Notes: generated from the letters alone by a model not told the origin. A stretch of DNA of 64,000 nucleotides from Candidatus Micrarchaeota archaeon (GCA_027046625.1 JALTXX010000004.1:1698-65697), one strand, 5' to 3'. Positions 18,861-63,769 are shown, counted from the stretch's first letter. A program made the numbers and translations.

Positions 18861-18976
18861 AATATTGGGACCCTTCTACACTTAAAGCATATGCTTATAC
18901 ATAACGAGGATTCAAAATATTTTTACTAATTTATTTTTTACAAACTTTTCTACATAACCAATACCGGAACCGCAAC

Positions 18977-18987
18977 TTATATAAATA
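18977..18987 (+). promoter_or_regulatory. Putative TATA box of the ftsZ promoter
   Basis: TTATATAAATA sits about 40 nt upstream of the ftsZ ATG at 19024 within an AT-rich intergenic region. A purine-rich stretch (GATGAGGGGG) lies just before the start. Confidence 0.35.
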
Positions 18988-19023
18988 ACCTTCCCCTCAA
19001 TTCTTCGTTTAGAAAGAAGCCCG

Positions 19024-45326: not shown

Positions 45327-45458
45327 TGGGGCCGCGGGGATTTGAACCCCGGACCTTCGGGTCTCCCCCTATTTAGACCCGAAGCTCTTCATCGGCTGTC
45401 CTCCGCGCTCCAGACAAACGTCTGGAGCCCGACGCGCTGCCAACTGCGCCACGGCCCC
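45327..45458 (-). tRNA. tRNA-Trp (anticodon CCA) with an approximately 59-nt intron
   Basis: Exons: GGGGCCGTGGCGCAGTTGGCAGCGCGTCGGGCTCCAG...ACCCGAAGGTCCGGGGTTCAAATCCCCGCGGCCCC. Intron segment GUCUGGAGCGCG is complementary to the anticodon arm (bulge-helix-bulge context). Confidence 0.8.
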
Positions 45459-47965: not shown

Positions 47966-50236
47966 GTGTTGGGGTGTAATAAAGTTTATGTGGTTGTGGA
48001 AGTAGAAGGTGGCAAAAGGATACTGAGAATCGATGCCAGAGACTGGCCCACGGGAGGTTCTGTTGTAGACTATCCCGAGAGCATGTTTAGGGTTGTTTCT
48101 GAACTCATGAAGGAAGATGCAGATATTGTAATTGTAACCGACGTTTATGATCATGTATACGGGGAGGACGCCGTAAATATCTTGAAGGAGATTGCAAAAG
48201 TGGGGAAAATCTTCCAATCAGAAGGATACTGGAGCTTCTCTGTAGTAGAGAAATTAGGTAGAGGGTGTGCTAATCCCCTAAAAAATGAACAGGTATGGGT
48301 TGTAAGGGTAACACACGATCTTTGGTTAAGCGATCCTGTAAGGGCTTATCTAGAGGTGCTGAGAAAAATAAAGGGTTACACATCCTTGGATGGTTATCCA
48401 GAGGCTATAAGAAGATGTATAGAGCAATACGTATCCATCCTCAAGAAGATAAAGACTCACATGGAGTCTACAAGGATTATCTCAAAGGTAAGAGAGTACA
48501 TAGCAACCCAGCGACGGGCCCCCGATAGAGGATTCTACAGAACCATCCTTCCCGTCCAAATAAAACCCGCCTTTCTTGGATCGGGTATTATAAGTGGTTT
48601 GGGAGAAGATCTCGAGCTCGTAGACTCCTACACCCTAGAGGGAGATGTGGAAGTATCCATATACAGGGATCCAAACAGTGTAGAGTATTTATACTATCTT
48701 CAAGCACCTGAATTTTCTCTGTCTCCACAACTTTACATGGTATTAGAGAAGGCAAAACAGATGGCAGCAGAGTACACCCCTTCAAGTACCCTCCTAACCT
48801 CCAGATCCTTTGCAAGGCGACAGTTTGAGGAAATGTATATGCAAACCATCATAGATGTGTCCAGACAGATGGGTATTCCTCTAGAAGAGGATGATCTAAG
48901 GCTTCTTTCCTCTATTCTTGCTAGATATACCGTGGGTTATGGTATTCTGGAGCTGTTCTTCTTGGACAGAAACCTAACAGACATATATGTGGATGCACCA
49001 CTAAGTACCAGGCCGGTATATGTACTCCACTCAAGGTACGGCCAGTGTAGAACAAACATTGTATACTCAGAGACGGAAGCAAAGAACTTCGTATCCAAGC
49101 TTAGATCTATGAGCGGAAGACCCTTTGACGAGGCCCATCCTGTTTTGGATTATGATATTCCAGATTTGCACGTAAGAGTAGCCGTTATAGGGCCACCTCT
49201 TTCCCCTGATGGCATTGCCTTCGCATTTAGACTCCACAGACCAACACCTTGGACGCTGCCCCTGTTCCTTGATGTAAATATGTTGACTCCTCTAGCCGCT
49301 GGTCTCTTATCCTTTCTTGTAGACGCCCAATCAACATTGCTCATCTCTGGAAGCAGAGGCTCTGGTAAGACATCTCTCATGACGTCCCTTATACTTGAGA
49401 TACCTCAGAACCAACGCATTCTCGTACAGGAAGACACATTGGAGATTCCCGTGGAAGCTATAAGAAAGCACGGGTATCATATCCAACGCCTAAAGACTAG
49501 GAGTCCTATCGGAGGAGGAGCCGCAGGGGAGGTTCCTCCAGAGGATGCCCTTAGAACAGCCCTCAGGTTGGGAGATTCCGCCATTGTGATAGGAGAGGTG
49601 AGATCTAGAGAGGCGAAGGTACTATACGAAGCCATGAGGGTGGGGGCAGCAGGCAGTACAGTGATGGGAACTATTCACGGTGATTCCGCATATTCTGTGT
49701 GGGATAGAGTGGTCAACGACTTGGGTGTACCCACCACCTCCTTCAAGGCAACGGATGTGGTGGTAGTGAACGCTCCTATTAGATTTGGGGGGTCCCTTAA
49801 AAGGGTAAGAAGAACCATCTCCATAACAGAAGTATTGAAGCATTGGAAGGCAGAACCTTTAGAGGAGGGTGGTTTCCTTGATATTATGAGGTATTCCGCA
49901 GATAGGGATAGATTGGAACTGCTGGAGGATAACGTAAGAAACTCCGAGCTGCTTATGAAGATCGGAAGGCTTAGAGGAATGAGTCCAGAAATGATATGGG
50001 AAGAAATTAGGGCAAGGGGGGAAGAAAAGGCCCTTGTTGCAAGGTTGAGTAGAGAATACAAGGTAAGGGAACTTATGGAAGCGGAGCACTATTCAATTAT
50101 ACATAACAAGTTCCTCCTCCTAAAGGAGCAACAACTGGAAGAGCATGGAGAAGTAGACTACCCCTCCCTCCTCAAGGATCTTGAAAATTGGATAAAGAAC
50201 ACGCTTGTGAGGGAGATCCTTGCCAGGAGAGGCTGA
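47966..50236 (+). CDS. FlaI/GspE-family secretion ATPase with an N-terminal extension of about 200 aa
   Basis: Walker A LISGSRGSGKTS, Asp/His boxes, Walker B region VIGEVRSREA. At 756 aa it is longer than typical FlaI proteins (about 550 aa). Confidence 0.85.
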   Translation: MLGCNKVYVVVEVEGGKRILRIDARDWPTGGSVVDYPESMFRVVSELMKEDADIVIVTDVYDHVYGEDAVNILKEIAKVGKIFQSEGYWSFSVVEKLGRGCANPLKNEQVWVVRVTHDLWLSDPVRAYLEVLRKIKGYTSLDGYPEAIRRCIEQYVSILKKIKTHMESTRIISKVREYIATQRRAPDRGFYRTILPVQIKPAFLGSGIISGLGEDLELVDSYTLEGDVEVSIYRDPNSVEYLYYLQAPEFSLSPQLYMVLEKAKQMAAEYTPSSTLLTSRSFARRQFEEMYMQTIIDVSRQMGIPLEEDDLRLLSSILARYTVGYGILELFFLDRNLTDIYVDAPLSTRPVYVLHSRYGQCRTNIVYSETEAKNFVSKLRSMSGRPFDEAHPVLDYDIPDLHVRVAVIGPPLSPDGIAFAFRLHRPTPWTLPLFLDVNMLTPLAAGLLSFLVDAQSTLLISGSRGSGKTSLMTSLILEIPQNQRILVQEDTLEIPVEAIRKHGYHIQRLKTRSPIGGGAAGEVPPEDALRTALRLGDSAIVIGEVRSREAKVLYEAMRVGAAGSTVMGTIHGDSAYSVWDRVVNDLGVPTTSFKATDVVVVNAPIRFGGSLKRVRRTISITEVLKHWKAEPLEEGGFLDIMRYSADRDRLELLEDNVRNSELLMKIGRLRGMSPEMIWEEIRARGEEKALVARLSREYKVRELMEAEHYSIIHNKFLLLKEQQLEEHGEVDYPSLLKDLENWIKNTLVREILARRG

Positions 50237-52241
50237 ACTGTATAAAAAGCTGTGCACATCAAAGGCCCCAGTTCCCGTCGAGGTAAGGGAGGCTGTAGAG
50301 TTTCTTGAGTGGAAGATTGACCCAGAATGTGTCGGCGGGGCTGCCAGAAAGGGAGCTATCTACGGTTTTCTAGCAGGGCTGGTATTTGTTGTCCTCTACA
50401 TACTTACGTACGCCATGAATTTCGGCTTCGGAGCATTTTTAGAAGCTCTTGTATTTGATATAGCCACGTTAAACCCGTTTACACTGCTTGTATTATTCCT
50501 TCCTATCATTTTAGCATTCATAGCCTACTTTATGCTGCTCTACTATCCCGTCATGAAAAAGGAAGAGGAAATGGGCCAGATTCTCCTTGAACTACCAGAG
50601 GTCATGGGATATGTTGTTCTTTCCCTTAAACTATCTCCCAACCTGGAGAGGGCCCTGTCTTTTGCGGCAGATAACTCTGAGGGAGTTCTAGCAAACCGTA
50701 TAAAGAAGCTTATATGGGAGATGCGCATGGGTGTGTATGCCTCTGCGGAGGAGGCCCTAGATCACCTTATTTACAGGGTAGGAGCCAACATACCGGAACT
50801 AAAACACGCCCTCATGCAAATCAGAGCCTCAACCCTCGAACCCGATGATGCAAGGAGAAACTTCAGGCTGGACAGAGCACTGGATGATATTATAACCTCC
50901 GTAAGGAATAGGTTAGAAGAAAGGGCTTCAAGCATGTACATGCCGTCCATTCAGCTCTTCTACCTTGGTGTATTTTTACCTCTGCTTCTCTTTGTCATCC
51001 TCCCCGTAGCCTCCGCCTTCTCGGATCTACCGCTTGCTACCCTGCCCTCCTTGGTAGCCATTTATATAATAGGGTTGCCCCTCATTATATACATCTTTTC
51101 GCGCTCTATTCTCTCAAAGAGGCCAAACATATACAAACCGCCGGTTCCCCCAAAGGAGAAGGATAGAAAGCATCTATACATAGCGATAGCAGCCGCCATT
51201 GTAGTACTATCAATCTCCTACATCCTACATCTTCAGCTAGATATCACATACGAAAGGGCTGAAGCACTATATTGTGGATATGAAGGATGCCTAAGGGAAA
51301 AATATGGGTTTACTAGCTGGGAAGATGCAAAATACATAGATGAGGTTTCTCAGATACTATCCTCGTATGATACCACCCCATACTGGCTTATATTTGGCGC
51401 GTTGCTCGCTCCCGTGGTTGCAATATCCATATACTTTTTCCTTTCAGAGCGAGCACGCGCCAAAAGAAAGGAAGAGATCATGGAGATGGAAGGAGAGTTT
51501 AAGGACGTCGTATATCTTATGGCTTCCAAAATGGGAGAAGGCAAACCGCTAGAGGGGGCTCTTGAGAGCGTTATAAATCTCATGCCTAATTCCAAGCTTG
51601 TAAGGGAGGTTTTTTCCAAGATACTCTATAACATAAGGGTGATGGGTCTTTCCCTGGGAGATGCTGTATTTCATCCTCTCTTTGGAGCATTAAGGCATAT
51701 TCCTAGTCACTTTCTCAAAAAAGCAACATCTACTGTGGTTAAGTCTGTAGAGCTGGGAACCGAACTAGCTGCAAGAGCACTCATAGCTTTTTCTGACCAG
51801 CTAAGAAAGGAGGAAGAGATTATAAGGATGTTAAGATCTAAAATGGGAGAGATTTATATTATGATTACCTCTATGGTGCTCTTCGTTTCCCCCATCGTGT
51901 TGGGTATTACAGTAGCCCTTCAACAGGTAATTGTAAGCTCTCTCTACTCTGTTGAGGCACCCGAAGTACCCGAAGAGTATGTTTATCAGCTGAACATATC
52001 TGTTCCAAAAATCAATGAGTTGGAAGGTAAGGTGGCGTCCCCGGCGGAATTCCTCACCATAGCGTTCCTTTATAACATCATACTAACCTTTCTCCTCACC
52101 ATCTACTCCGTAAAACTCTACGAAGGGGAGGATCCCATAGCTGTAAGAAGAGCTTTAGCAAGAAATCTTCTCATCTCTTCCCTTCTGTTCATTCTGTCTA
52201 CGTGGGTGTCCCTTTCTATCATAAGAGGTGTAATAGTATGA
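50220..52241 (+). CDS. FlaJ/TadC-like polytopic membrane platform protein (two T2SS-F-like halves)
   Basis: 673 aa with two cytoplasmic helical domains, each followed by transmembrane triplets. Overlaps the ATPase gene by 17 nt. Confidence 0.75.
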   Translation: MPGEAELYKKLCTSKAPVPVEVREAVEFLEWKIDPECVGGAARKGAIYGFLAGLVFVVLYILTYAMNFGFGAFLEALVFDIATLNPFTLLVLFLPIILAFIAYFMLLYYPVMKKEEEMGQILLELPEVMGYVVLSLKLSPNLERALSFAADNSEGVLANRIKKLIWEMRMGVYASAEEALDHLIYRVGANIPELKHALMQIRASTLEPDDARRNFRLDRALDDIITSVRNRLEERASSMYMPSIQLFYLGVFLPLLLFVILPVASAFSDLPLATLPSLVAIYIIGLPLIIYIFSRSILSKRPNIYKPPVPPKEKDRKHLYIAIAAAIVVLSISYILHLQLDITYERAEALYCGYEGCLREKYGFTSWEDAKYIDEVSQILSSYDTTPYWLIFGALLAPVVAISIYFFLSERARAKRKEEIMEMEGEFKDVVYLMASKMGEGKPLEGALESVINLMPNSKLVREVFSKILYNIRVMGLSLGDAVFHPLFGALRHIPSHFLKKATSTVVKSVELGTELAARALIAFSDQLRKEEEIIRMLRSKMGEIYIMITSMVLFVSPIVLGITVALQQVIVSSLYSVEAPEVPEEYVYQLNISVPKINELEGKVASPAEFLTIAFLYNIILTFLLTIYSVKLYEGEDPIAVRRALARNLLISSLLFILSTWVSLSIIRGVIV

Positions 52242-52606
52242 AAGGCCAAGCGTACACACTGTTCAACTACCTCGCATGGGCTGCCTTTTTTGTAGCTGCA
52301 ATAGGGGTTGTGTACATCGTATTCAACAACTCCATAAGACAGGCAACTCCTGTTCCCATCGAAACGATAAACGATGTCCTCCGCAGCGCGGCAGAGCAAA
52401 GAAAGGTAGGTATAGACACCCCTGTATGTGCAGATCTCTACGTTAGCGGTGAAATAACCATTACTAAGGATATTGTGGGAAGATATGGTCTAAATTTGGA
52501 CCTAAAGTGTGAAAACGTAACTTGCAGAGAAGAGGAGGATGGTATAACCATATGGGGCAGTGGGAGATTATGTGTAGAAGGTGGAGTTCTCGTGTGGAAG
52601 CGTTAA
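52238..52606 (+). CDS. Pilin-like protein with class III signal peptide
   Basis: MKG|QAYTLFNYLAWAAFFVAAIGVVYIVF. The ATG overlaps the flaJ-like stop (ATGA). Confidence 0.55.
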   Translation: MKGQAYTLFNYLAWAAFFVAAIGVVYIVFNNSIRQATPVPIETINDVLRSAAEQRKVGIDTPVCADLYVSGEITITKDIVGRYGLNLDLKCENVTCREEEDGITIWGSGRLCVEGGVLVWKR

Positions 52607-52636
52607 TATTTTATATCTCCATCATCTAATAGTGGC

Positions 52637-53050
52637 ATGAAGGGCCAAGCCTTTGAGGTATTCAGGCTTCTCATTGCAGCAGTAATTGGGGGGGCTATCC
52701 TTATGGTATTGTTAGGCATACTTCAGGGCATCATATCACCTACTACAGATCCTCAAACTGCCACAGCCCAGCTTGTAAAGAAAAACTCCAAGTTTGGTGG
52801 TATAGGAACCACAGACGTGATAACTTTCAGAAAGGACATGTACATAGATCTGAGAGCAGTCGCAAGGGAGGCATACCTTGACACGGAATGTGTAAAAGTT
52901 GGAGATGTATTAGAGGGTTTTGAAAAAAAAGATGATAAAGTAATAAGATACGCAGGGACCGGTACAAGGGCAAAGATAATGGTGGAATGCACCGAAAGTG
53001 AAAATAAAAAATGTCCCATCGAGTGTACGGTTTCCATCATCCGTCCTTAA
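52637..53050 (+). CDS. Pilin-like protein with class III signal peptide
   Basis: MKG|QAFEVFRLLIAAVIGGAILMVLLGIL (Glu at +4, as in type IV pilins). Confidence 0.6.
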   Translation: MKGQAFEVFRLLIAAVIGGAILMVLLGILQGIISPTTDPQTATAQLVKKNSKFGGIGTTDVITFRKDMYIDLRAVAREAYLDTECVKVGDVLEGFEKKDDKVIRYAGTGTRAKIMVECTESENKKCPIECTVSIIRP

Positions 53051-53190
53051 AAGGGATGAACGTTTAATATTAGCATGAGAGCAGGTGGAGACTGGAATGT
53101 TATATACCTCCTTGTGGTAGCTATTGTGGCAGCCCTGCTTATTTTCGGGGTGATAAAGCCATCCATGGCTAAAGGGTACAGGGTGGTCAA

Positions 53191-53694
53191 ATGAGGGGTG
53201 TGGAGGCACCCTTCCAATTGGTAGTATCTGTTGTAACCATCCTGTTTGTGCTATACCTTTCCTACATGGTTATATCCAATGCCATACGGGAGGATTGTTC
53301 CAAGAAGATAGATATCCAGCTTAGGAACATTGCAACCACCGTTTCCACAGCTGTGTATTCATCTCCTCCCACTAAACTCATGGAAAGGTTCGACTTTAGG
53401 TGTGGGGGGATGGTAGGGGACTACTATGTTAGTGTTAAGGGTTCTTCCAACGAAACCGAATGTCTTAGAGTGTGCGGATATTCATATAGTGGGCAATGTG
53501 TATATCTTATCCTTGAGGTAAGGAGGGGAGAGGAGGTTCTAAATAGATCCTATGCCTGTATAGAGGGAGCGGTACCCTCCCACAACATAACAATAAATGG
53601 CGGTAAAGATAAAGTAAAGGTGTCTCCACCCTATGGGAGTGTAGAAATAGAAAAAACAGAGGATGGGATTACCTTGCGGTGGAACAGAAGGTGA
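53191..53694 (+). CDS. Pilin-like protein (class III-like signal)
   Basis: MRG|VEAPFQLVVSVVTILFVLYLSYMV, 167 aa. Confidence 0.5.
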   Translation: MRGVEAPFQLVVSVVTILFVLYLSYMVISNAIREDCSKKIDIQLRNIATTVSTAVYSSPPTKLMERFDFRCGGMVGDYYVSVKGSSNETECLRVCGYSYSGQCVYLILEVRRGEEVLNRSYACIEGAVPSHNITINGGKDKVKVSPPYGSVEIEKTEDGITLRWNRR

Positions 53695-53698
53695 AAGA

Positions 53699-54181
53699 AT
53701 GTTAGATTACATACTCTCAAGGCTGATGCTCCTTATATTTCTTCTCCTCATTGTGGGTACCATTGTTTCTTACAAAGACTTCCTTGGGGATATGTTTGCC
53801 TCTGCAGGAGCCAAATCCTTGGTGCTAAAGGTAGGAGAGAAGATTAGAAGCATTGCTCTAAGCCTTACTGTTACCAGCGCTGAGGAAGCCATCAGATTGC
53901 CGTCCTATATAAGATCTGGGCCTGTAAGGCTGGATTACAATATGGTATTTGGGTGTAACGGTAGTGAACTAGGCATAGGAGTAAAATCCACCAGAGGAAA
54001 CCTTCTATACTTCAAAACATGGAACCTAAAACCCTCTGATAGAGGCATAAAGATCCGGATTCCAAAAAACGACGTAGAGGCGGGGGATATTCTTTATATT
54101 AAGAAATCTTCCACCCTAAGTGAGGTAACCCTCACCATAAAGCCAAGGAATGGGGAAGTGAGAACATGCCAAGCCTCATAG
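53699..54181 (+). CDS. Small N-terminally anchored protein (possible minor pilin)
   Basis: MLDYILSRLMLLIFLLLIVGTIVSY, then a beta-rich body. Start taken at an internal Met. Confidence 0.4.
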   Translation: MLDYILSRLMLLIFLLLIVGTIVSYKDFLGDMFASAGAKSLVLKVGEKIRSIALSLTVTSAEEAIRLPSYIRSGPVRLDYNMVFGCNGSELGIGVKSTRGNLLYFKTWNLKPSDRGIKIRIPKNDVEAGDILYIKKSSTLSEVTLTIKPRNGEVRTCQAS

Positions 54182-54543
54182 ATATGGGTGCCATTATACC
54201 CATTGTAATGGCCCTTCTACTTTTCTTCGGAACGCTAGTGTATACCATAAATACGATAGAGGAGAAAAACAAGAAAATGGAGCTACTATTTGCCCTCTTC
54301 GAGGTATCCAACATGCTAACAGAGAAGGGTGTGGTTACAGACGAATGGATTGAAAAGGTTAAGGAAACGTTAGAAAATGATGATTACGAGTTTTGTATAG
54401 AGAAGAGAGGAGAAAACACATGCGAAGCACGGTCGCCCACCTATATAAGCCTTGAGTTTCCTGTTTCCTTCCAAACAAATAAAGATGGAATTCCATTCAA
54501 TGAGATAAGAGTCCTAAAGGTGGTAGTATGGCCAAAGGTATAG
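54166..54543 (+). CDS. Small N-terminally anchored protein (possible minor pilin)
   Basis: MPSLIDMGAIIPIVMALLLFFGTLVYT, 125 aa. Confidence 0.4.
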   Translation: MPSLIDMGAIIPIVMALLLFFGTLVYTINTIEEKNKKMELLFALFEVSNMLTEKGVVTDEWIEKVKETLENDDYEFCIEKRGENTCEARSPTYISLEFPVSFQTNKDGIPFNEIRVLKVVVWPKV

Positions 54544-55046
54544 CTGCAGTGTTTGATGCGGTATTCCTCCTCATTATTGCTTCCATAGCCTCCGGCATAC
54601 TACTTTCTGTAACATACGGATATGGGTCTTCCTTTGAAAGACATGCAAAGGGTGTACTCATGAATTACTATGCTAAACAGGTGGTAAAGGCCCTTGTAAC
54701 GGCCTCTATAGAAAGAGACGGAGTTCCAGACTACCTCCTGTCCTACCTCAAGGAAAGTATAGAGGCTGGGAGAGATATGACAGAATTGGAGAATATGCTG
54801 AAAGATATTGTTACAAAGGCTATGGAGCCTGTAAGAGATAGATATGACTATGTGGTATCTCTGAAAACAGAGAATGGCAGCATATTCATCTGCAACGACA
54901 ACATTATTGAAAACGACCCCTTGGATAACTACTTCGGCCCAAGGTACAGCTCCAGTACAAAGATATACATGGATATAAAAGGAAGGTACGTTCCCATTAC
55001 CATTACGGTTACCCTCACTCCTCGAGGGATTTTAGAATGTCCATAA
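54528..55046 (+). CDS. Pilin-like protein with class III signal peptide
   Basis: MAKG|IAAVFDAVFLLIIASIASGILLSV, 172 aa. Confidence 0.5.
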   Translation: MAKGIAAVFDAVFLLIIASIASGILLSVTYGYGSSFERHAKGVLMNYYAKQVVKALVTASIERDGVPDYLLSYLKESIEAGRDMTELENMLKDIVTKAMEPVRDRYDYVVSLKTENGSIFICNDNIIENDPLDNYFGPRYSSSTKIYMDIKGRYVPITITVTLTPRGILECP

Positions 55047-55875
55047 CGTCTTCTTCCTTCTTTTCTTCCCCCTCCTCCTCAAGCAGAGATAGAAGGTCGT
55101 CTTCCTTCTTCTTTTTGGCTCCTTCCTTCCTCTCCTCCTTATTCTCTACCATAACACTCCCGAAGATTTCTGGAAATATGTCATCTGCCACCTTAGAAAT
55201 ATAATCTTCCCTTCTAGGATCCCTTCCATCCTTTATTTCATGCATAAAGAAGTCTACTATTACCTCTGCATGTTCTTTCATATAGCTTCTTACCTTCCTT
55301 CTGGACATAGCAAGCTCTTTGAAGCTTATTCTACCCTCTTCTCTCATCTTTTCCTCCACCCTCTTCATGAGCTCTCTCTCTAGATGGGAATACGCCACCT
55401 TTACCATCTTCTCTATCTCCGCCTTGGAAAGGGGTCGTTTTTTTGGAACCTCCTTCGTTTTTTCCTTCTGTTCTTCCTTCTTTTCCTTTTCCTCTTCTCT
55501 CTTTTCTTCTCTACCACTTGCCTCTTTTTCCCCCGTAGTTTCTTGCTGCTTCTCATCCTCTTTCTTTTCTCCCCCTTTCTCACCTCCGGCCTCCTTCTTT
55601 CTCTCCAAAACAACTTCCTCTCTCCTCTCCTTCTTATCCTCTACAGGAGGCAGAGACGCATACTCCCTTAGATTATTTACCACCTCCATAAACAACCTTA
55701 TCTCATCCAACTCATCTGTCTCCTTAACTTTTGCAACCCTTTCCCTCCTCTCCTGCTTCACCTTCTGGGATCCAAAGCTAAACTCTTCCACCTGAATAGC
55801 TTTGTCCTTCTTCACCTCCTTCCTAGGTTCCTTCTTACCTCTCCCAAAGAGGGATAGCAAACGCTGCAGCATCAT
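55015..55875 (-). CDS. E/K-rich low-complexity protein (hypothetical)
   Basis: 286 aa with a long KE/EK repeat core and ordered termini. Convergent 32-nt overlap with the last pilin-like gene. Confidence 0.45.
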   Translation of the reverse strand: MMLQRLLSLFGRGKKEPRKEVKKDKAIQVEEFSFGSQKVKQERRERVAKVKETDELDEIRLFMEVVNNLREYASLPPVEDKKERREEVVLERKKEAGGEKGGEKKEDEKQQETTGEKEASGREEKREEEKEKKEEQKEKTKEVPKKRPLSKAEIEKMVKVAYSHLERELMKRVEEKMREEGRISFKELAMSRRKVRSYMKEHAEVIVDFFMHEIKDGRDPRREDYISKVADDIFPEIFGSVMVENKEERKEGAKKKKEDDLLSLLEEEGEEKKEEDVMDILKSLEE

Positions 55876-55906: not shown

Positions 55907-56305
55907 ATGGATCTCCTTTCACCCATCATTCCATCCATTATCCTTGGAACCATCTTCTATATTTTCAAAAACCATACACCATACCTTATTCCTATAGCAA
56001 TCTCAATAATCTGGTTCTTCTATATCATATACGGATTTGGAGCGTGTCCTTTGCCGCCGCCCCATATAGAACTAACATGCAATTTTGATATAAGCATACT
56101 TTATGGGGCGGCGGCATCCTCAGCAGCAGTGGGCATCATCTCTTTTGTGTTTACAGCCGTGGGCGTGGGGATTTTTAGGTGGATAAAGGTGAAGAACCTG
56201 TGGGTAAGATATGTGGTGAGCACTTATATTACACTTCTACTCTTACAGTTATGGGTGGTGGTGTTTCCATGGACCATAGAACTCTTGTATGGATTCTTCT
56301 CATAG
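55907..56305 (+). CDS. Small polytopic membrane protein (hypothetical)
   Basis: 132 aa with four hydrophobic helices, immediately upstream of the giant surface protein. Confidence 0.35.
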   Translation: MDLLSPIIPSIILGTIFYIFKNHTPYLIPIAISIIWFFYIIYGFGACPLPPPHIELTCNFDISILYGAAASSAAVGIISFVFTAVGVGIFRWIKVKNLWVRYVVSTYITLLLLQLWVVVFPWTIELLYGFFS

Positions 56306-59300
56306 GAAGCATGGCCTACGGAAACATAATGTGTGAAGTGGTAGAGGATGGAGATATTTCAAAGCTCATAATCAACACTGTATACAGAGAGGACGGTATA
56401 CATCCCTTCTCCTCCATTACTACAAATTCCCAGGAGGGAGAACAGATAGATGTGGATTCCATGGTATTGGTAGATGGTGAGGGAAGGGCATATGATGTGG
56501 AAGTGGGCAAGGAGGCAGCCCCCGTGGAGAATACCATCCTGGGAGGAAGTTACTATGAGGGCCCCTTTGTGGTGACCTATCTTCTTTCTGACACCCTTCG
56601 CATCGCGAAGGTCGGTGTCCACTCCTACGGAGAGGGTGCCCTTCTTAGGGAGCGTTTTGAAGGCACTTATGGGATATCCCTCTATGAAACACTAAAAAAC
56701 ATCGCAAAGAACATCAAGGAGTTCGTATTCTTTGTGAATGAACAAACACCTCCCATAAATAACGTTATAAACGCCGAGAACTTTTCTGCAAGTGTTGTAT
56801 GTGCATCATCTTCCTGTAAAAAAGAGCTGTACTCATTGCTTACTAAGTATATGAATCTGGGGGCGTCCTCCGAGATGGCCGTGGAGTTTCTAAACTTTAA
56901 GTTTGTGATAGGTCCTGCAAAGAGGGCAGCTGAAGGTGCATTAGCCTTAGGGAAGATTTCAGTTCCCGAATCCAAGTTTGTAGAAGGGTTGAAGAACAAG
57001 CTTAGAGCTCTGAACTTTTTTGGGAGAAAACAGTTAGAGGAGGCAAAAAACCTGTTCAAGGGACTATCTGACGGTGAGAAAGAGGCCATAAAAGGTATTT
57101 TAGATTCGCCTTCTGAATGGTACGCGCACACCGGAAAGCTTTCCCTTCAAGGAAAGACAGCAGCCTACATATTTACAAAGGAGCTCAAGAACGTAAAGTT
57201 CGAGAAGCTTATCGTAGAGGAGGGAGGAAAGAAGTACCTACTTGTAAACAAATTGGAGGAAGCTATAAAGAATATGGAGGAGTTCGGAAAGAAGGTAGGC
57301 GATATACAGAGTTTGACGGGATCTGAAAGACTAAAGGAGATGAAGCAGCTGGCAGATAGTGTAAAGAAAACGCTTGAACAGATAAAAAACAATGTAAAAA
57401 ATAAGAATATAGAAAAAATACCGTTAAAGGAGCTTGCAAGCCAGCTCAAAGGAAAGGTAAAACTAGAGGATCTAGAGAAGATAAAACAACTGAGAGAAAT
57501 GCTGGATGACTACAGCAGCATTGTAAGAAACTTGGAAGACAAGGTACCCCTTGTTCTATCTCAAGCGGATCTCATAGGCGATGAGATGGAGAGGATGCTA
57601 TCAAAAGAATCTGGGAGCAGAACAGGCAGGGCTCTTGTTGCCAAGGGCGTTGCCACACCCCTTATGTTCTATCTTACAAGAACCACCCCCCTCCCCCCTG
57701 ATGTCACCTTTGAGGGTATTAACTCTAACCTCTCAAAAATCTTTCCCGTAAAGAGGGCGTACCAGATACCAAGCAGCTGGACTACCATGGATTTGAAACC
57801 TTCTAACATGGAAGGGGTATTTATGGATGTCCTCATAGGGCATGGAAGCGATCCTGGAAACATATTTAGGAGCATCCTTACCATCTTACCAATAGGGCTC
57901 ATCGACAGGGTTATAACGAGTGTTACAGGCTCTAATCCCCTCGATATTGTAGATATGATACCCGATCCTGAGGATGAAGAACTATACAGGATGAAAGATG
58001 CTGTGGTAATGCTGGCAACCACCAACAACTGCCAAACATGTTACATAGAGGACGGGAAAAGCTTCTCAGGTCCAAAGCTCTTCCTCTCTCTAACAGAGAA
58101 CCAGAGAGAAAAATCTACCCTTATAACCTTCTTTAGAAGGATGGACCTTATCGCAGATGGAAAGAGGCTCATTGATACGAGTAACAGCGAAAACTTATGC
58201 TCCCAGAAATGTTTTCTTGTAAGAAATATGACAGAGGCCTCCGGCAAGGAACCATTTGCTGCCCTTTTCTTGCACGGATTACTCATAGGATATGTGGTAC
58301 CGTCCTTTGGCGGTTTAACGCTCACCCTTATCATATCTGCGGCTACCTCTCCCGTCTTTGCAGATTGTTTCACATGCACAGATACCACATTTGGATACTA
58401 TCTTCATGTATTGAGTTTCTCGCCTCCCAAAGAAGAGGAACCCATGCCTGTAGACAAGGTAAAGGCCGCGGTAGAACAATTGGGTGTAGATATTAAGCAG
58501 GTTGAGGAGTGGATTTCCAGTTACAAGAAAGGGGAAATAGAGAAGCAAAGATCTATGTTGTATTCCACACTCACCAACGCCAAAGGTAAGATGGAGGGAC
58601 TTGTTATCAGTATATGGACAAAACCGTCCTTTTCTATGCCCACAAGATTCAAAGGTGGGGTAGAACTCTCCACAGAGGATGGAGAAAAGCTTCGTATCGA
58701 TGAAACCACGGTAACATCCAAGGATGGTTCTGTTACAGCTCCCGGGGCCGGCATATCAACGGTAGAAACGGAAATACCAGGTATGATCGTGCCTACAAAC
58801 CTCTCCCGAGTAAATCTATCCTCTATTTCCCTGGAGGTAACATCCCAGGAGAATTATATTATTGGGGAGGCGCTTCAGCAGTGTTTAAGCGTTGAGCCTG
58901 GTAGAATAAAGCTCGTAAAAGCAGAAAAGGGAAGTATAAAGGTAGAAGAGGATGGTTTGTACGTTACAAGTGATGATTATGTAGGGCCTGCAAGCAAGAT
59001 AACAGTGGAGAATGGAATTGTTAGGGCAACAGTAACTGACATAACACCAGAAGGAATAACACAGAAGGACATAGAGCTCGGAAAGCTTATTTCAATAGTA
59101 TTTGAGAGGGTATCTGTTGTTTCAAAGGGTGACAGTGCCTATGTATGGAACAAAGGCGACTCCGTTCCCCAAGAAAGTGTGGAAGATGCTGATTTGGAAA
59201 CAGATGGAGAAAGCGTCTCCCTCAGTATAACTCCATCTTCAGATGCAACGAGGGAGGAGGTAAAGACCATAGATAAGGGAGAGGAGATGTTAGATGATAT

Positions 59301-59832
59301 TCAGGCTATCGATGCATCAAAAACCACCGTAGCAATAAGGGAAGGAAAGGACGGAGAACAGTACTTAACTATCTACAACAAGGAAGATGGTTCTGTTACC
59401 AACGAGAAGATTGTGGACATGAAATCCGAAAATGGAGAGCTCGTTGTTACAACCGTGGATGAGAAAGGTAATGAAAAAGTACACAGAATAAGACTTGAAG
59501 TAACATCGGATGGTACACCTACCCTCAAGGTGGACGGAAAGGATGGAGGTATTGTCAAGACAGTTCAGTCCAAGGAGGGCTTCATGTGGTACAACCCAAA
59601 AACGGGTGAGTGGAATTTTGTAAATGGTGTACTTGCACCCCTGTCTGAGGCATTTAAGGAAGGTATGAAGATCGCCTTTGAAGGAGGTAAGGCGGTGGCA
59701 AAACCATCAGGCAACATCATTGTAAATGCTCCGCCCTCTCAGGGCATGTCTCTCCCATCCCTTGGAGAGTGGATACTGCCCCTACTAGCAATAGTTATCC
59801 TACTAATGCTCTATCAAGGATCACGACAGTGA
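56269..59832 (+). CDS. Large secreted surface protein (about 1187 aa) with C-terminal transmembrane anchor. Possible adhesin or S-layer-like
   Basis: Signal-peptide-like MDHRTLVWILLIGSMAYG|N, a long T/V/E/K/G-rich beta-type body, and C-terminal SLGEWILPLLAIVILLMLYQGSRQ. The ORF-track start at 56179 is probably an upstream extension. Confidence 0.65.
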   Translation: MDHRTLVWILLIGSMAYGNIMCEVVEDGDISKLIINTVYREDGIHPFSSITTNSQEGEQIDVDSMVLVDGEGRAYDVEVGKEAAPVENTILGGSYYEGPFVVTYLLSDTLRIAKVGVHSYGEGALLRERFEGTYGISLYETLKNIAKNIKEFVFFVNEQTPPINNVINAENFSASVVCASSSCKKELYSLLTKYMNLGASSEMAVEFLNFKFVIGPAKRAAEGALALGKISVPESKFVEGLKNKLRALNFFGRKQLEEAKNLFKGLSDGEKEAIKGILDSPSEWYAHTGKLSLQGKTAAYIFTKELKNVKFEKLIVEEGGKKYLLVNKLEEAIKNMEEFGKKVGDIQSLTGSERLKEMKQLADSVKKTLEQIKNNVKNKNIEKIPLKELASQLKGKVKLEDLEKIKQLREMLDDYSSIVRNLEDKVPLVLSQADLIGDEMERMLSKESGSRTGRALVAKGVATPLMFYLTRTTPLPPDVTFEGINSNLSKIFPVKRAYQIPSSWTTMDLKPSNMEGVFMDVLIGHGSDPGNIFRSILTILPIGLIDRVITSVTGSNPLDIVDMIPDPEDEELYRMKDAVVMLATTNNCQTCYIEDGKSFSGPKLFLSLTENQREKSTLITFFRRMDLIADGKRLIDTSNSENLCSQKCFLVRNMTEASGKEPFAALFLHGLLIGYVVPSFGGLTLTLIISAATSPVFADCFTCTDTTFGYYLHVLSFSPPKEEEPMPVDKVKAAVEQLGVDIKQVEEWISSYKKGEIEKQRSMLYSTLTNAKGKMEGLVISIWTKPSFSMPTRFKGGVELSTEDGEKLRIDETTVTSKDGSVTAPGAGISTVETEIPGMIVPTNLSRVNLSSISLEVTSQENYIIGEALQQCLSVEPGRIKLVKAEKGSIKVEEDGLYVTSDDYVGPASKITVENGIVRATVTDITPEGITQKDIELGKLISIVFERVSVVSKGDSAYVWNKGDSVPQESVEDADLETDGESVSLSITPSSDATREEVKTIDKGEEMLDDIQAIDASKTTVAIREGKDGEQYLTIYNKEDGSVTNEKIVDMKSENGELVVTTVDEKGNEKVHRIRLEVTSDGTPTLKVDGKDGGIVKTVQSKEGFMWYNPKTGEWNFVNGVLAPLSEAFKEGMKIAFEGGKAVAKPSGNIIVNAPPSQGMSLPSLGEWILPLLAIVILLMLYQGSRQ

Positions 59833-60181
59833 CTGCAGGTCTCTCCTCTTCTATCTCCTTCACTCGTCCGAAGGAGACAAACTTTACCTTTACCCTTGCA
59901 CGCTGTACCTCCACCTCATCTATATGATCAATATTTACCCTTGAGGGGGCTATTCTTACCTCCAACACCTCTCCCACAATACCCTCTGTGTGGGTATCCA
60001 ACTCCTCATATACATCCTCCGTAAGGAATACTCTGTCTCCCTTCTCTAGGAGAGATGCCGTTCTTACGTTCACGAAGGAGAGAAACTCTAACACTATCAC
60101 TCCTTTTCTTGTAAGCCTCTCAAGACTTTCCTTTTTTATTCCAGTAAAGGCCAGCATATTCTCACCCATACATGGACACAT
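59795..60181 (-). CDS. Hypothetical protein (about 120 aa)
   Basis: Intact ORF downstream of the PAC2-like gene with no motif. Confidence 0.35.
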   Translation of the reverse strand: MCPCMGENMLAFTGIKKESLERLTRKGVIVLEFLSFVNVRTASLLEKGDRVFLTEDVYEELDTHTEGIVGEVLEVRIAPSRVNIDHIDEVEVQRARVKVKFVSFGRVKEIEEERPAVTVVILDRALVG

Positions 60182-60806
60182 CCAAATGATCTTCCTCGGG
60201 GGGAGACAGTACGAGGTCGTCTACATCTACCTCTATACCGGTAATCCTTCCGACCTCAGAGACAAGGCGAGGAGCGGCACTGATATCCTTCCTTCCCGAT
60301 GTAGGTCCCAGCAGCAGCAATACAGGTACGTTTCTTTCTCTGCCGAGAAGGAGTAGTGAAGCTGTTACACCTGTAACCACTCCATTTTCTATGGGTCTAA
60401 GATGACCTGCAAACTTTCTGGCAGATTCATTAGATGCTATCACATAAACATCCTCCGAGGAGGGGGATAACACACCGCTTAAAACTACCACTAGCTTGGC
60501 CCCATCTTTCCATGCCTTTTCCATAATGGTATGGGCTACCTCCCAGGATAGATCCTCGGGGATGGGAACATCGGAGAGAATGGCATGTACATTGGAGCGA
60601 GAAAACACGTTTATAGGATAGTATATTCTACCCTTCTTCACCCTTCCTATGGGAGGTAGTCTACGCGAGAAGAGGTACCCTGTCCATTTGAAGCCTCCTC
60701 TTTCTACGTAATATCTTAGGGATATGTTTCCCACCAGTCCCAATCCAGGAAATGAGATGAGAAGTATGCCATCACGAAAGCTTGCTCCAGTTCTTAGCTG
60801 TACCAT
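60162..60806 (-). CDS. PAC2-family (proteasome assembly chaperone-like) protein
   Basis: N-terminal ILLISFPGLGLVGNISLRYYVE and C-terminal ASLLLLGRERNVPVLLLLGPTSG resemble PAC2/PbaB-family signatures. 214 aa. Confidence 0.55.
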   Translation of the reverse strand: MVQLRTGASFRDGILLISFPGLGLVGNISLRYYVERGGFKWTGYLFSRRLPPIGRVKKGRIYYPINVFSRSNVHAILSDVPIPEDLSWEVAHTIMEKAWKDGAKLVVVLSGVLSPSSEDVYVIASNESARKFAGHLRPIENGVVTGVTASLLLLGRERNVPVLLLLGPTSGRKDISAAPRLVSEVGRITGIEVDVDDLVLSPPEEDHLDVSMYG

Positions 60807-61552
60807 ACTATCACCATATACACACCCATAGCTACAAGGCTTCCCACAAGGATATAGACGGGTATGTTTTTAGGCTTCCTCTCCAAAGCTCCTACAAAGA
60901 AACCACTAATAGATACTAACAGAAGCAAATACACCAACACCACCTCTCCAATCGACCCTCCCATCCTCTCTACTAACTTCGTTACAAACCCTAGCACAAT
61001 GGGAACCAAAAGGAAAGAGGAAAGAAGGATGGAATATCTCTGAAGGGATAGGGTAGATAACTTTTCCCTTTCCGTCTCGCCTACCACGTAAAGCTCCTCT
61101 GAAAGGTTTTTCAGAAGTTGAGGAGCAGTACCTGCTCTAAAGGCTTCTATAATACTTGTTATAGCCCTTTCTATGAGAGAAGAATCCCATCTCTCGTATA
61201 GTGTCCTCAAAGCCCTAAGAGGTGGGATACCCTTCTCTACCATCCTCTCTACAGATTCAAGCTCCTTTGAGAGCTCTCCGAATCCTTTTCTTCCCAAGGA
61301 TATAAGCGCTTTTGGAGTAATAGAAGGGTACGTAGCTGCTGTGTGCACCCATCTGGGGAGTTCTTCCTCTATACGTTGCTTCTTCCTTTCATAGAAGTAC
61401 ACTATAGAGATAAAGGACAATATAGGAACTAGAATAGCATAAAACCCGAACAAAAGATACGTAGAAGCAGTTAGCAGTATAATTACTGCAACAACATTCC
61501 TTTCATCCCACCCAAGAGTATCCAGCATCTTCATACTACCACTTCCTAGCAA
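60794..61552 (-). CDS. TadC/TadB-like T2SS-F-domain membrane protein
   Basis: 252 aa with an N-terminal transmembrane helix, a cytoplasmic helical domain, and two C-terminal transmembrane helices. Overlaps neighbours by 13 to 17 nt. Confidence 0.6.
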   Translation of the reverse strand: MLGSGSMKMLDTLGWDERNVVAVIILLTASTYLLFGFYAILVPILSFISIVYFYERKKQRIEEELPRWVHTAATYPSITPKALISLGRKGFGELSKELESVERMVEKGIPPLRALRTLYERWDSSLIERAITSIIEAFRAGTAPQLLKNLSEELYVVGETEREKLSTLSLQRYSILLSSFLLVPIVLGFVTKLVERMGGSIGEVVLVYLLLLVSISGFFVGALERKPKNIPVYILVGSLVAMGVYMVIVWYS

Positions 61553-62300
61553 TGTATACCAACATCACCACCGTGGCCATGGGGAGCACGATATAAAGGG
61601 TAAAATAAAGTATTCTCACATCCTGGGGCGTACCAAAAACGATAGGAAGTATGTGGGTATAGATGATTAGTATAGAGGGAACAAGAGCTGTTAATGCAAT
61701 AAACATAAGCGTATAAAGTGATAGTTTAGAGCTAAATTCTCTTATCTCAAGCTTTTTAGTCATTAAAAGGGAGTCTGCGTATCTCTCGAGTGCTTCCCAC
61801 CCTGTACCTCCCTCTATCACTTCCGATAGCATTTCTAGGGTCTTTCTAACACTATCAGACGTGTATGTAGAGGCTTCTCCTTCCAAGGCCCTTTTTAGAG
61901 GCAGCCCTCCTTTATGTAGGGAGAGGATTCTCTTCATGCTGTTTTCTATGTATTTTCTTCCCTTAGATGCTATTTCCATCCCCCTTATAGGATCAATGCC
62001 AGACCTTACGAGCGTGGAAAGGGATTTTAGGAAGAAGGGAAGCTCCCACTCTGCTACTCTGCCTCTAATATGGGAAAGAAGGATGGGCAGGTAAAGGGAT
62101 ATGCTAAATATGGATAGGGACAGCATAATCGCAAGGATAGGATCTACGAACACAAGAAGGAGGGGAAGAATGGAGAGAATAAAAGCATAGCCTAGATAGT
62201 CTTCCGGTGAAATAGAAATATCTGCGTTTCTTAGGTGTCTTCCTATTCTTCTTTTCATATCCTCGCTGAAGAGTGCTCCTATTCTCCACATCTCCAACAT
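61536..62300 (-). CDS. TadB/TadC-like T2SS-F-domain membrane protein
   Basis: 254 aa with the same topology as its neighbour. This split arrangement is the bacterial Tad pattern. Confidence 0.6.
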   Translation of the reverse strand: MLEMWRIGALFSEDMKRRIGRHLRNADISISPEDYLGYAFILSILPLLLVFVDPILAIMLSLSIFSISLYLPILLSHIRGRVAEWELPFFLKSLSTLVRSGIDPIRGMEIASKGRKYIENSMKRILSLHKGGLPLKRALEGEASTYTSDSVRKTLEMLSEVIEGGTGWEALERYADSLLMTKKLEIREFSSKLSLYTLMFIALTALVPSILIIYTHILPIVFGTPQDVRILYFTLYIVLPMATVVMLVYIARKW

Positions 62301-63769
62301 GTATAACGCCTCGCAAAAGTCTCAAGATCGTAAACGGGATTGTTTTTGAGGAATGTTACTCTCTCTTCAACATCGTCAAGGGACTCATTGGATACAAGCT
62401 CTACCACCCTTCTTACAATCCTTCCACCTTCTCCCCACCTTCTTACAACCACAACCACATCTATAGAGTCGAGATCTTCCTTTCTTACGCCCATACTTAC
62501 AAGCCTCGAAAGTACCTCCTTTACGGATCTTCCATGCATGGTAGTGTAGCTGCCCCTCCCCTGACCCGCAAGAACGGTATCCATATAGGCCTCTGCCTCC
62601 TCATCCTTTCTTATCTCTCCCACAATAACCCTATCTGGTCTCATACGAAGGGTATCCCTTATAAGATCCTTCATGCTAACACCAGAAACCACCATCCTGA
62701 CAAAATGGGGGTGTGGAATGTTTATCTCCGGCACCTCCTCCACCGCAATAACCCTTTCATCTAGGGGAACAAATCCCATAAGGGCATTGAGAAGTGTTGT
62801 CTTGCCGGATCCTGTATTGCCTGCAATAAGTATATTTAGCTCCCTCTCTATGGCAGCCCATAGAGTGGCTGCCTGCCCATAGGAGATGGATCCGCTCTCT
62901 ATAAGGGAAGATATGGTTAGGGGAGATTCTCTAAACCTTCTTACTGTAATAGAATGCACATTAGAGATAGGCGGTATAACTGCATGTATACGCGAGCCGT
63001 CCTCCAATATTGCATGCATTCTAGGTTCTTTTATGCTAATAAGCCTTCCCATCTTTTCTCCTGCTCTGTTTACAAGGTTCAGGAAGTACTCCTCCGTCCA
63101 TATGTAGATGTTTGTTTCTCTCCATCCCTTTCCTCTTTCATACACCATTACCGGTCTTTTTAGACCTACCACAACAATCTCCTCTATATTGTCCCCTTTT
63201 ATAAGGTTTAGAGGCCCCAGAGGGCTTAATGTGATATCCACTATCCACTCTACCCTTTCCTTAGTCCTCTCTGGTATGGAGAGCTCCTCTGAGAGGTCAT
63301 CTAATATTTCTTCGATGGAGTATTCTCCCTTCGTTCTCTGATAAATGTCTATTACTTTCCTTGCCACCCTTGCTTCCCAGGGAAGAATAGGCATCTCACT
63401 TACAATTCCATTATCCGTCAAAACCCATCCAATTTCATTTCCCACCTCCTCCATGTCTTTTTCCTCCAAAATAACTGTTATCTCGTCTCCACCCCTCTCC
63501 TTGCATATGGGATAACCTCTTTCTACACACATATCACACTTATACAGCCCATCCCTCCAAAACAGAGCATTATATGGACATAAAACAACATCATCGGGGT
63601 TTCCACCTTCTGCGCACAGAACCCCCTTTACACACTCAAATATCCCATCACTTCTGGCACAGGGAGCTTCAGGTGGATCACAGTGGATGCATCTTATCAC
63701 TCTTTCATCATGATAGGGGCATACCCTCCTGATGATATTCTTCCCCTCTTCTGTAGCCTCTATCCTCAT
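62279..63769 (-). CDS. VirB11/TadA/FlaI-family secretion ATPase with N-terminal cysteine-rich domain
   Basis: Walker A IAGNTGSGKTT, Asp/His boxes, Walker B RVIVGEIR. The N-terminal 100 aa carry 10 Cys (CPYHDERVIRCIHCDPPEAPC...CVKGVLC...CPYN...CDMCVERGYPIC). Confidence 0.8.
   Translation of the reverse strand: MRIEATEEGKNIIRRVCPYHDERVIRCIHCDPPEAPCARSDGIFECVKGVLCAEGGNPDDVVLCPYNALFWRDGLYKCDMCVERGYPICKERGGDEITVILEEKDMEEVGNEIGWVLTDNGIVSEMPILPWEARVARKVIDIYQRTKGEYSIEEILDDLSEELSIPERTKERVEWIVDITLSPLGPLNLIKGDNIEEIVVVGLKRPVMVYERGKGWRETNIYIWTEEYFLNLVNRAGEKMGRLISIKEPRMHAILEDGSRIHAVIPPISNVHSITVRRFRESPLTISSLIESGSISYGQAATLWAAIERELNILIAGNTGSGKTTLLNALMGFVPLDERVIAVEEVPEINIPHPHFVRMVVSGVSMKDLIRDTLRMRPDRVIVGEIRKDEEAEAYMDTVLAGQGRGSYTTMHGRSVKEVLSRLVSMGVRKEDLDSIDVVVVVRRWGEGGRIVRRVVELVSNESLDDVEERVTFLKNNPVYDLETFARRYTCWRCGE

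Follow-up and report, generated by a model that had tools for sequence, protein, structure and literature searches.

The window analysed here, a stretch of 64,000 nucleotides (nt) from Candidatus Micrarchaeota archaeon (GCA_027046625.1, JALTXX010000004.1:1698-65697), carries on its + strand at 47966-55046 a nine-gene operon encoding a PilB/FlaI-family ATPase, a FlaJ/TadC-type platform protein and seven pilin-like proteins, namely three paralogues (A, B and C), a mini-pilin and three further proteins designated g6, g7 and g8 (Table 1). We put the probability that this locus specifies a lineage-specific archaeal type IV filament (TFF; type IV pilus-like) machine at about 0.75. It is a variant of a known machine type rather than a machine of a new kind, and it overturns nothing. 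A first-pass annotation, made from the DNA alone, had proposed a type IV pilus-like locus consisting of an ATPase, a platform and prepilin-like genes; this proposal is borne out by T2SSE and T2SSF domains and by class III signal motifs that recur across ~60 genomes. The eight open reading frames (ORFs) that it listed were all found where it had placed them, but its count of six small genes has to be raised to seven, because the 39-residue gene at 53075-53194 had been overlooked. The junctions within the operon are tight, with overlaps of 17, 4, 4, 16 and 16 nt and gaps of 30, 24 and 4 nt, as expected of an operon. Two of the small ORFs have two possible starts each (52202/52238-52606 and 53663/53699-54181). 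Conservation across related genomes rules out the possibility that the ORFs are chance ones.

A homologue search that covered 5.8 billion proteins returned more than 865 relatives of the ATPase. The best 120 are nearly all ~750-770 residues long and at least 49% identical to the window protein, and their alignments cover at least 93% of the query, save for those of two intein-containing proteins. The window ATPase is identical to a protein from the metagenome-assembled genome (MAG) GCA_015521515.1 (contig WANZ01000021.1), and the named homologues are labelled Diapherotrites or Micrarchaeota. Scanning one genome per species yielded 209 ATPase-encoding stretches; for locus comparisons we used the best 80 of these (identified below by L numbers), in which ORFs were called and searched with iterated hidden Markov models built from each window protein. 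These 80 loci come mostly from ‘Candidatus Iainarchaeum’ MAGs; archaeon GW2011_AR10, whose genome is complete (CP010424, L040), and Ca. Iainarchaeum andersonii (L036) are also represented. Operon homologues were also found in bins labelled Methanobacteriota, Chloroflexi/Chloroflexota and Falkowbacteria (L009, L016, L017 and L039). These contigs are probably mis-binned DPANN sequences, and the ATPase family occurs almost only in genomes labelled Iainarchaeota or Micrarchaeota.

The gene order is likewise conserved. Dozens of genomes share the order archaeosortase-like gene (on the opposite strand), ATPase, platform, paralogue A, paralogue B/C, mini-pilin, paralogue C, g6, g7 and g8, and because this gene set is kept down to ~50% ATPase identity, it is under selection as a set. 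In two loci (L064 and L073) the block comprising ATPase, platform and pilins is inverted whole beside the block comprising mini-pilin, paralogue C, g6, g7 and g8; the same inversion, with small variations, occurs in L053, L056 and L067. Such inversions suggest two transcription units that stay together.

The ATPase is 756 residues long when read from the GTG at 47966, and 748 residues long from the start given in the public MAG annotation (47990); the longer form is the better fit to the N-terminus of the family. The profile searches that had been suggested as a check of the first-pass annotation gave T2SSE at 7e-20 for the ATPase and T2SSF at 1e-6 for the platform. The T2SSE domain (Pfam PF00437) occupies ATPase residues 397-599. 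The Walker A sequence GSRGSGKTS and the motifs QEDTLE, GEVRS and TIHGDSAY are invariant in 24 homologues, and the catalytic core is intact. Among PDB sequences, profile searches matched Archaeoglobus fulgidus GspE (2OAP, 511 residues) at E 1.8e-37 over query residues 222-696, CpaF structures (423-501 residues) at E ~1e-31 and FlaI structures (513 residues) at E ~1e-24. Since the 2OAP match spans residues 222-696, ~220 N-terminal and ~50 C-terminal residues are extra, which agrees with the earlier description of an oversized enzyme with an N-terminal addition of ~200 residues. In NCBIfam the best match was FlaI (136.9 bits, 8.8e-40, cutoff 550), followed by TadA (TIGR03819; 134.5 bits, cutoff 373), BasE (85.7 bits, cutoff 1000) and ComGA (50 bits, 1.6e-13, cutoff 300). 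The ATPase thus misses every NCBIfam equivalog threshold by a wide margin.

The N-terminal addition, in which the first-pass annotation had seen no recognisable motif, belongs to no recognisable family, and no specific structural relative of it was found. Structure prediction, also proposed in the first-pass annotation, gave a confident fold (predicted local distance difference test (pLDDT) score 90.7) in which two beta-hairpins around a helix lead into a helical bundle, after which the canonical N domain begins with its first strands. When the module alone was searched against 1.84 billion representative proteins, 59 matches were returned; the module was located at or near the N-terminus in every one, so that this is the only position in which it was seen among these representatives. 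The module-bearing proteins run from short pieces to ~750-770 residues and up to 1783 residues, and the sole long one for which there are domain data contains an intein. (Two ATPase homologues, P0077 and P0089 (1273 residues), carry intein/LAGLIDADG domains, and P0176, P0205 and other module matches of up to 1783 residues are unusually long.) The first subdomain of the module has a C-x2-C...C-x2-H set in ~60-67% of 116 ATPase homologues, which is likely to be a metal site. The window ATPase and its closest relatives have A, W, S and R at the four C/C/C/H positions (residues ~16-34, 47990-48100).

The platform protein has a T2SSF domain (PF00482; cutoff 25.2 bits) in two stretches and ~10 hydrophobic segments; it has no NCBIfam family match. 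Its gene, which overlaps that of the ATPase by 17 nt, directly follows the ATPase gene in 69 loci, and the annotated platforms of two relatives are 705 and 763 residues long.

To score class III signals we used a motif rule of our own in place of FlaFind, requiring [KR][GA] and, no more than 28 residues further on, a 15-residue window with a mean hydropathy of at least 2.0. The motif was present in 134 of the 151 members of the paralogue A, B and C families combined, and in the mini-pilin (38/45), g7 (34/40) and g8 (32/34) families, compared with 63 of 1033 background ORFs of like size (6%). Thus in six of the seven small-protein families 84-94% of the members have the motif, with the +1 residue mostly Q, and these families carry a predicted class III cleavage motif beyond chance. 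The g6 family does not (2/39). That the small proteins might not be predicted as class III substrates, which the first-pass annotation had named as one outcome that would count against its proposal, is by this motif rule not what was found. The four class III N-termini that it reported (MKG↓QAY, MKG↓QAFEVF, MRG↓VEAPF and MAKG↓IAAVFD, the arrow marking the predicted cleavage point) had been read correctly. Its description of the other two small proteins as having only an N-terminal hydrophobic helix stands for the g6 family but not for the g7 family.

Paralogues A, B and C are homologous to each other by profile comparison, in which hhalign gave 99.7% probability for A with B and ~96% for C with A and B. 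Their consensus leaders, of the general form (K/R)G↓Q, are KG↓QAFExFxLLIGA, KG↓QAFSVFKLLIAAVVA and KG↓QESAPFELLIAVIVM, the last being the consensus of the paralogue C family. The mini-pilin, g6, g7 and g8 are considered separate families because their hhalign probabilities to the paralogues are at most 49% and involve the N-terminal helix only. Among 47 homologues of paralogue B, G3, Q4, F6 and V8-A15 are invariant, and A5 and E7 are nearly so. The AlphaFold2 model of paralogue B (pLDDT 92.1) combines an N-terminal helix of 29 residues with a second helix and a beta domain. In the paralogue B family C118 and C130 never vary, and all three paralogue families share four conserved Cys columns. 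The window also encodes candidates for an extracytoplasmic disulfide machinery, comprising a thioredoxin/DsbA-like protein, a membrane protein with a glutaredoxin domain and a DsbD-like protein (30828-31619, 35865-36887 and 37366-37929); these would fit the four conserved cysteines of the pilin heads.

The overlooked mini-pilin ORF, which encodes MRAGGDWNVIYLLVVAIVAALLIFGVIKPSMAKGYRVVK (N-terminus MRA↓GGDWNVIYLLVV...), is also called in the public MAG annotation. The family is present in 48 loci and has the consensus (K/R)A↓Q(S/G)EWSSVYLLIV...KPMF, the leader consensus having E, K/R and A before the cleavage point; the window copy reads RA↓GGDWNVIY. The proteins have a single-helix build, with a precursor of 39 residues in the window and of ~48-60 residues in its relatives. 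The g6 family, found in 41 loci, starts with the consensus MLGF(I/T)LSK(L/I)NLLILV. Leader consensus sequences are KG↓F(I/L)GPIGDDLPSLIPL for the g7 family and (K/R)G↓QA(A/S)(V/I)TDALYFLLIV for the g8 family, of which the window copy has KG↓IAAVFDAVFLLII.

Table 1. Genes of the pilus-like operon and its neighbours; positions are counted from the first nucleotide of the window, and arrows mark predicted cleavage points
Feature	Position	Strand	Evidence or remark
Archaeosortase/exosortase-family membrane protein, 129 aa	47565..47954	-	TIGR04178 exo_archaeo, 37.2 bits
PilB/GspE/FlaI-superfamily secretion ATPase, 756 aa	47966..50236	+	T2SSE 7e-20
ATPase family-specific N-terminal module, ~220 aa: small alpha/beta subdomain, then helical bundle	47990..48649	+	
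Polytopic platform of FlaJ/TadC/PilC type, 673 aa	50220..52241	+	T2SSF 29.2 bits
Pilin-like paralogue A, 122 aa, MKG↓QAYTLFNYLAW...	52238..52606	+	Class III motif, hydrophobic helix
Pilin-like paralogue B, 137 aa, MKG↓QAFEVFRLLIAAV...	52637..53050	+	Candidate major subunit
Mini-pilin, 39-aa precursor, ~36 aa mature, MRA↓GGDWNVIYLLVVAIVAALLIFGVIKP...	53075..53194	+	Conserved family, 48 loci
Pilin-like paralogue C, 167 aa, MRG↓VEAPFQLVVSV...	53191..53694	+	hhalign to A and B
g6, N-terminally anchored protein lacking class III motif, 160 aa, MLDYILSRLMLLIFLLL...	53699..54181	+	Family in 41 loci
g7, pilin-like protein, 125 aa, starts MPSLIDMGAIIPIV	54166..54543	+	Motif in 34/40 family members
g8, pilin-like protein, 172 aa, MAKG↓IAAVFDAVFLLIIA..., final gene of operon	54528..55046	+	Motif 32/34
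K/E-rich protein, 286 aa, 38% K+E, convergent	55015..55875	-	Conserved in position only
Small membrane protein with four transmembrane segments, 132 aa, just upstream of large surface protein	55907..56305	+	
Large surface protein, 1217 aa from GTG start; probable start 56269, MDHRTLVWILLIGSMAYG	56179..59832	+	

Several neighbouring genes travel with the operon. The product of the divergent gene upstream exceeds the TIGR04178 cutoff of 23 bits, all 34 aligned homologues match the same model, and Cys42, Glu47, Asn79, Arg82 and His95 are invariant. A homologue of this archaeosortase-family protein adjoins the ATPase gene in 57 loci. In the window its start codon and that of the ATPase (756-residue form) are only 11 nt apart, so that each promoter must lie inside the first codons of the other gene; there is a TTTATTA element on the - strand at ~47978-47990. 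At the other end of the operon, in 28 of the 31 loci that have a readable flank, the first long ORF past g8 runs on the opposite strand and encodes a protein whose lysine plus glutamate (K+E) fraction is at least 0.20. Attempts to build a family from the sequences of this K/E-rich protein failed, only its position and composition being conserved. The versions in L003 (18648-20888) and in L040/AR10 (18887-21050) have N-terminal transmembrane (TM) segments and a C-terminal zinc ribbon; the window protein has neither. A short motif in other genomes, PTRKELDEI..YSQL, has LSKAEIEKMVKVAYSHL as its window counterpart.

Beyond the K/E-rich gene lies that for the 132-residue membrane protein, which has homologues in L010 and L012 but belongs to no Pfam or NCBIfam family; a small protein with 4-5 TM segments is usual at this position, and in 20 other loci it belongs to a family of ~178 residues. 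A large surface protein is often encoded next. That of the window (1217 residues) has no strong Pfam or NCBIfam match, and its C-terminus consists of LPSLGEW, a TM helix and QGSRQ; similarly, the large proteins of L020 and L051 end in FNLPSLPE, a TM segment and a basic tail. Archaeosortase substrates are expected to have a tripartite C-terminal signal (PMC6098224), and the 1217-residue protein is, on the strength of these three examples of the tail, a candidate substrate. In L003 (Diapherotrites MAG JACQJH010000001.1, 1-9788), a 3444-residue protein with Amidase_2 and cupredoxin domains is encoded beside the operon, along with a ~800-residue protein with a faint glucosaminidase match. The Amidase_2 domain and, should its match be genuine, the glucosaminidase are peptidoglycan hydrolases; their presence beside an archaeal pilus locus may hint at bacterial partners or prey.

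In the TFF machine that we favour, the pilin-like precursors would insert in the membrane via their N-terminal hydrophobic helix; a class III signal (prepilin) peptidase, whose gene would lie outside the window, would then cleave them just behind [KR][GA]. The ATPase, presumably a hexamer, would sit on the cytoplasmic face of the platform, and ATP hydrolysis would power the extraction of processed subunits from the membrane and their helix-to-helix packing into a filament on the cell surface. The filament body would most likely consist of paralogue B, the 36-residue mini-pilin, or both; these are the best candidates, and the N-terminus of B and the whole length of the mini-pilin are strongly conserved. 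The remaining class III proteins would then serve as minor, priming or tip subunits, and g6, which is predicted to stay uncleaved, may be a membrane-anchored assembly factor. The ~220-residue module of the ATPase probably serves to dock a partner specific to this system. The filament would most likely be used to adhere to surfaces or to a host cell, given the surface-protein neighbours, the proposal of DPANN pilus-like loci as candidates for host interaction (PMC11291902) and the peptidoglycan hydrolases of L003.

Various observations weigh against this reading. Of the small-family members compared with Pfam and NCBIfam pilin models, including Pilin_N (PF07790), TIGR02537 and Class_IIIsignal, none matched (0/81 and 0/66, 147 in all), yet two other pilins of the window (10825-11262 and 29810-30676) are picked up by these libraries. 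Recognition by a curated model is not strictly defining, however, pilins being notoriously divergent. The head of paralogue B has no match to any solved pilin. The window g7 begins with MPSLIDMGAIIPIV, which is equivalent to the mature N-terminus, and lacks the charged (K/R)G leader; it may need no cleavage, or it may be non-functional. Further, no prepilin peptidase was found: Pfam detected no Peptidase_A24 among the multi-TM ORFs of the window, and a scan for the motif G.[GA]D.[KR] in the window and the 80 related loci gave no prepilin peptidase, so that the earlier statement that the window has none holds for both the domain and the GxGD-type motif. Two membrane proteins were considered for this role and rejected, the 129-residue upstream protein since it is of the archaeosortase family and the downstream 132/178-residue protein since it has no aspartyl-protease motif. 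An A24-type peptidase, if present, would be encoded outside the locus, and cleavage of the pilin-like precursors is a prediction. The ordinary RG↓ISP pilins encoded elsewhere in the window mean that the genome needs a class III signal peptidase anyway, and FlaK has been reported in LFWA-I, a lineage grouped with Micrarchaeota (PMC8561730).

Other functions were weighed for the same genes. A degenerate or atypical archaellum, used for swimming, is effectively excluded. FlaI is indeed the best NCBIfam match of the ATPase, and some database homologues are labelled ‘archaeal flagellar protein FlaI’, but the 137 bits fall far below the cutoff of 550, and the enzyme is nearer in sequence to A. fulgidus GspE and CpaF than to the FlaI structures. 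Moreover, neither the locus nor its relatives gave an archaellin, FlaF/FlaG/FlaH or platform NCBIfam match, and in the published view rotation is associated with minimal ATPases that have no extra domains. The first-pass annotation had likewise set the locus apart from archaella and had noted that FlaB, FlaF, FlaG and FlaH are missing; both points hold, there being no Pfam or NCBIfam match to archaellin, FlaF, FlaG or FlaH among the locus proteins. DNA uptake through a competence-type pseudopilus, which could provide nucleotides to a reduced-genome archaeon, would account for the tight succession of ATPase, platform and several pilin-like genes, a layout like that of Bacillus comG, and for the weak similarity to ComGA; scavenging of DNA by means of type IV filaments has often been suggested for DPANN archaea and candidate phyla radiation bacteria. 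We nevertheless regard it as very unlikely, because the ComGA score lies far under its cutoff and below the FlaI and TadA scores, no ComEC-like channel occurs among the polytopic proteins of the window, and the co-conserved neighbours are surface-anchoring rather than DNA-handling.

Rather than long pili, the operon might build a short pseudopilus or a bindosome-like assembly through which other surface proteins, such as the adjacent giants, are secreted or displayed. Consistent with this are the many pilin-like genes, none of them plainly major, the similarity to BasE, and the co-conservation of large surface proteins and an archaeosortase-family gene beside the operon; functionalised TFF machines of this sort have also been proposed (bioRxiv 10.64898/2026.04.22.720090). 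But the BasE score is far under its cutoff, and the giant protein begins with an ordinary signal-like sequence and ends in an anchor, features that point to Sec export plus sortase processing; this reading thus seems unlikely. A bolder version of the TFF proposal, which we entertain tentatively as a minority possibility, would join the operon, the archaeosortase-family gene, the K/E-rich protein, the small membrane protein and the LPSL(G/P)E-anchored giant protein in a single Iainarchaeia-specific attachment organelle for host or prey contact, in which the filament would be built around the 36-45-residue mini-pilin and the N-terminal module would couple the ATPase to its partners. If this were so, the mini-pilin would be the smallest archaeal pilin known. 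More radically still, the sortase-like enzyme may act on the filament components themselves.

The window contains a second, different TFF core on the - strand (60794-63769). Its ATPase (62279-63769, 496 residues, T2SSE 1.9e-34) has a Cys-rich N-terminal region of ~110 residues with several CxxC pairs, and its platform is split over two half-size T2SSF genes (61536-62300 and 60794-61552). This core has no adjoining pilin genes and is followed by genes for PAC2 (60162-60806) and DUF473 (59795-60181) proteins. The two pilins recognised by curated models are both encoded on the + strand and away from either ATPase. That at 10825-11262 has 145 residues (MRG↓ISPIV; Pilin_N 25.4 bits, TIGR02537 31 bits); in that at 29810-30676 (288 residues) the same RG↓ISP N-terminus is joined to a C-type lectin domain (4.5e-7), suggesting that a pilus presents a lectin adhesin. 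A further + strand gene (23851-24816), likewise away from both ATPases, encodes a 321-residue protein that starts MARMRG↓LYTPLIGF and belongs to no family. Matches to a tRNA and to the archaeal signal recognition particle RNA lie on the - strand (45327-45458 and 18587-18859, respectively); the 132-nt Rfam tRNA match, which is absent from the ARAGORN calls, is probably an intron-containing tRNA.

DPANN archaea are tiny and mostly host-dependent, and how they attach to their partners is poorly understood, with type IV filaments as leading candidates. On the Iainarchaeota/Micrarchaeota side of DPANN, the present locus defines a TFF variant that is well conserved and easy to recognise; the ~220-residue ATPase module is diagnostic of it, and it also has the Flp-sized mini-pilin and a co-inherited surface-anchoring module. 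Because the seven pilin-like families escape curated models, their genes are annotated in these genomes as ‘hypothetical proteins’. In practice, annotation gains profile models, and work on enrichment cultures gains defined subunits to seek in proteomes or by cryo-electron tomography. The family also provides a test case for ATPase N-terminal modules that specialise TFF machines.

The Sulfolobales Ups and Aap pili resemble the present system in being non-archaellum archaeal type IV pili, and the likeness lies in gene order alone, the Ups operon running ATPase, platform, pilins. Ups and Aap have two pilins and ATPases of ~500 residues, unlike the seven pilin-like genes and 756-residue ATPase described here, and the UpsA model matches the window pilin at 10825-11262 rather than the pilins of this locus. 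With the archaellum (FlaI/ArlI, FlaJ/ArlJ and archaellins) there is homology at the level of the ATPase and platform superfamilies, and class III signal substrates are shared; what separates the two are the widely missed FlaI threshold and the lack of archaellins and FlaF/FlaG/FlaH in the locus.

Within DPANN, the existence of divergent pilus loci has already been noted in general terms, TFF loci with unrecognisable pilins among them (Makarova et al., PMC6393860). Two conserved pilus-like loci accompanied by coiled-coil proteins have been described from cluster 2 DPANN and put forward as candidates for host interaction (Hamm et al. 2024, PMC11291902). Compared by description, those loci, from Ca. 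Nanohaloarchaeum antarcticus and its relatives, are like ours in being DPANN-conserved, of CpaF/TadC type and accompanied by charged coiled-coil-type proteins. They differ in distribution, being from Nanohaloarchaeota, Woesearchaeota, Pacearchaeota, Nanoarchaeota, Aenigmarchaeota and Undinarchaeota, whereas the present family is Iainarchaeota/Micrarchaeota-labelled. In a literature coverage that was incomplete, we found no published description of this family, its mini-pilin or its archaeosortase neighbour.

There are also resemblances to the bacterial Tad/Flp system, which include the CpaF/TadA-like ATPase core (1e-31 to CpaF structures, 134 bits to TadA) and a very small pilin, hardly more than one hydrophobic helix, beside larger pseudopilin-like proteins. 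The mini-pilin is comparable to Flp (mature length ~40-50 residues) in size and single-helix build, but its cleavage motif (K/R)A↓Q(S/G)EW...Y differs from the Flp motif G↓xxxxEY. Unlike Tad/Flp systems, which have a TadB plus TadC pair, the operon has one full-length platform (673 residues); the TadA score is under the cutoff of 373, and there are no secretin or Tad accessory genes. Split platform genes occur in the other TFF core of the window (60794-63769), not in the present operon.

The best published fit, judged by descriptive features alone, is system 2/clade 2, exemplified by Haloferax volcanii pilB-pilC with PilA (PMC4858521). Sivabalasarma and Albers (2026, bioRxiv 10.64898/2026.04.22.720090) characterise ‘system 2’ TFFs by an extended ATPase N-terminus, one platform gene, pilins with and without class III signal peptides, and large adhesins. 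The present locus shares the extended ATPase N-terminus, some C-terminal extra sequence, the single platform, the mixture of pilins with and without such signals, and large adhesin-like neighbours. It departs from system 2 in that its pilins match neither Pilin_N, TIGR02537 nor any other curated family, and in that the family is found in DPANN (Iainarchaeota/Micrarchaeota) and not in Euryarchaeota. It is further distinguished by its private ATPase module, its 36-45-residue mini-pilin and its co-conserved archaeosortase-family gene, and N-terminal modules of the ATPase have been argued to mark TFF subsystems (bioRxiv 10.64898/2026.04.22.720090).

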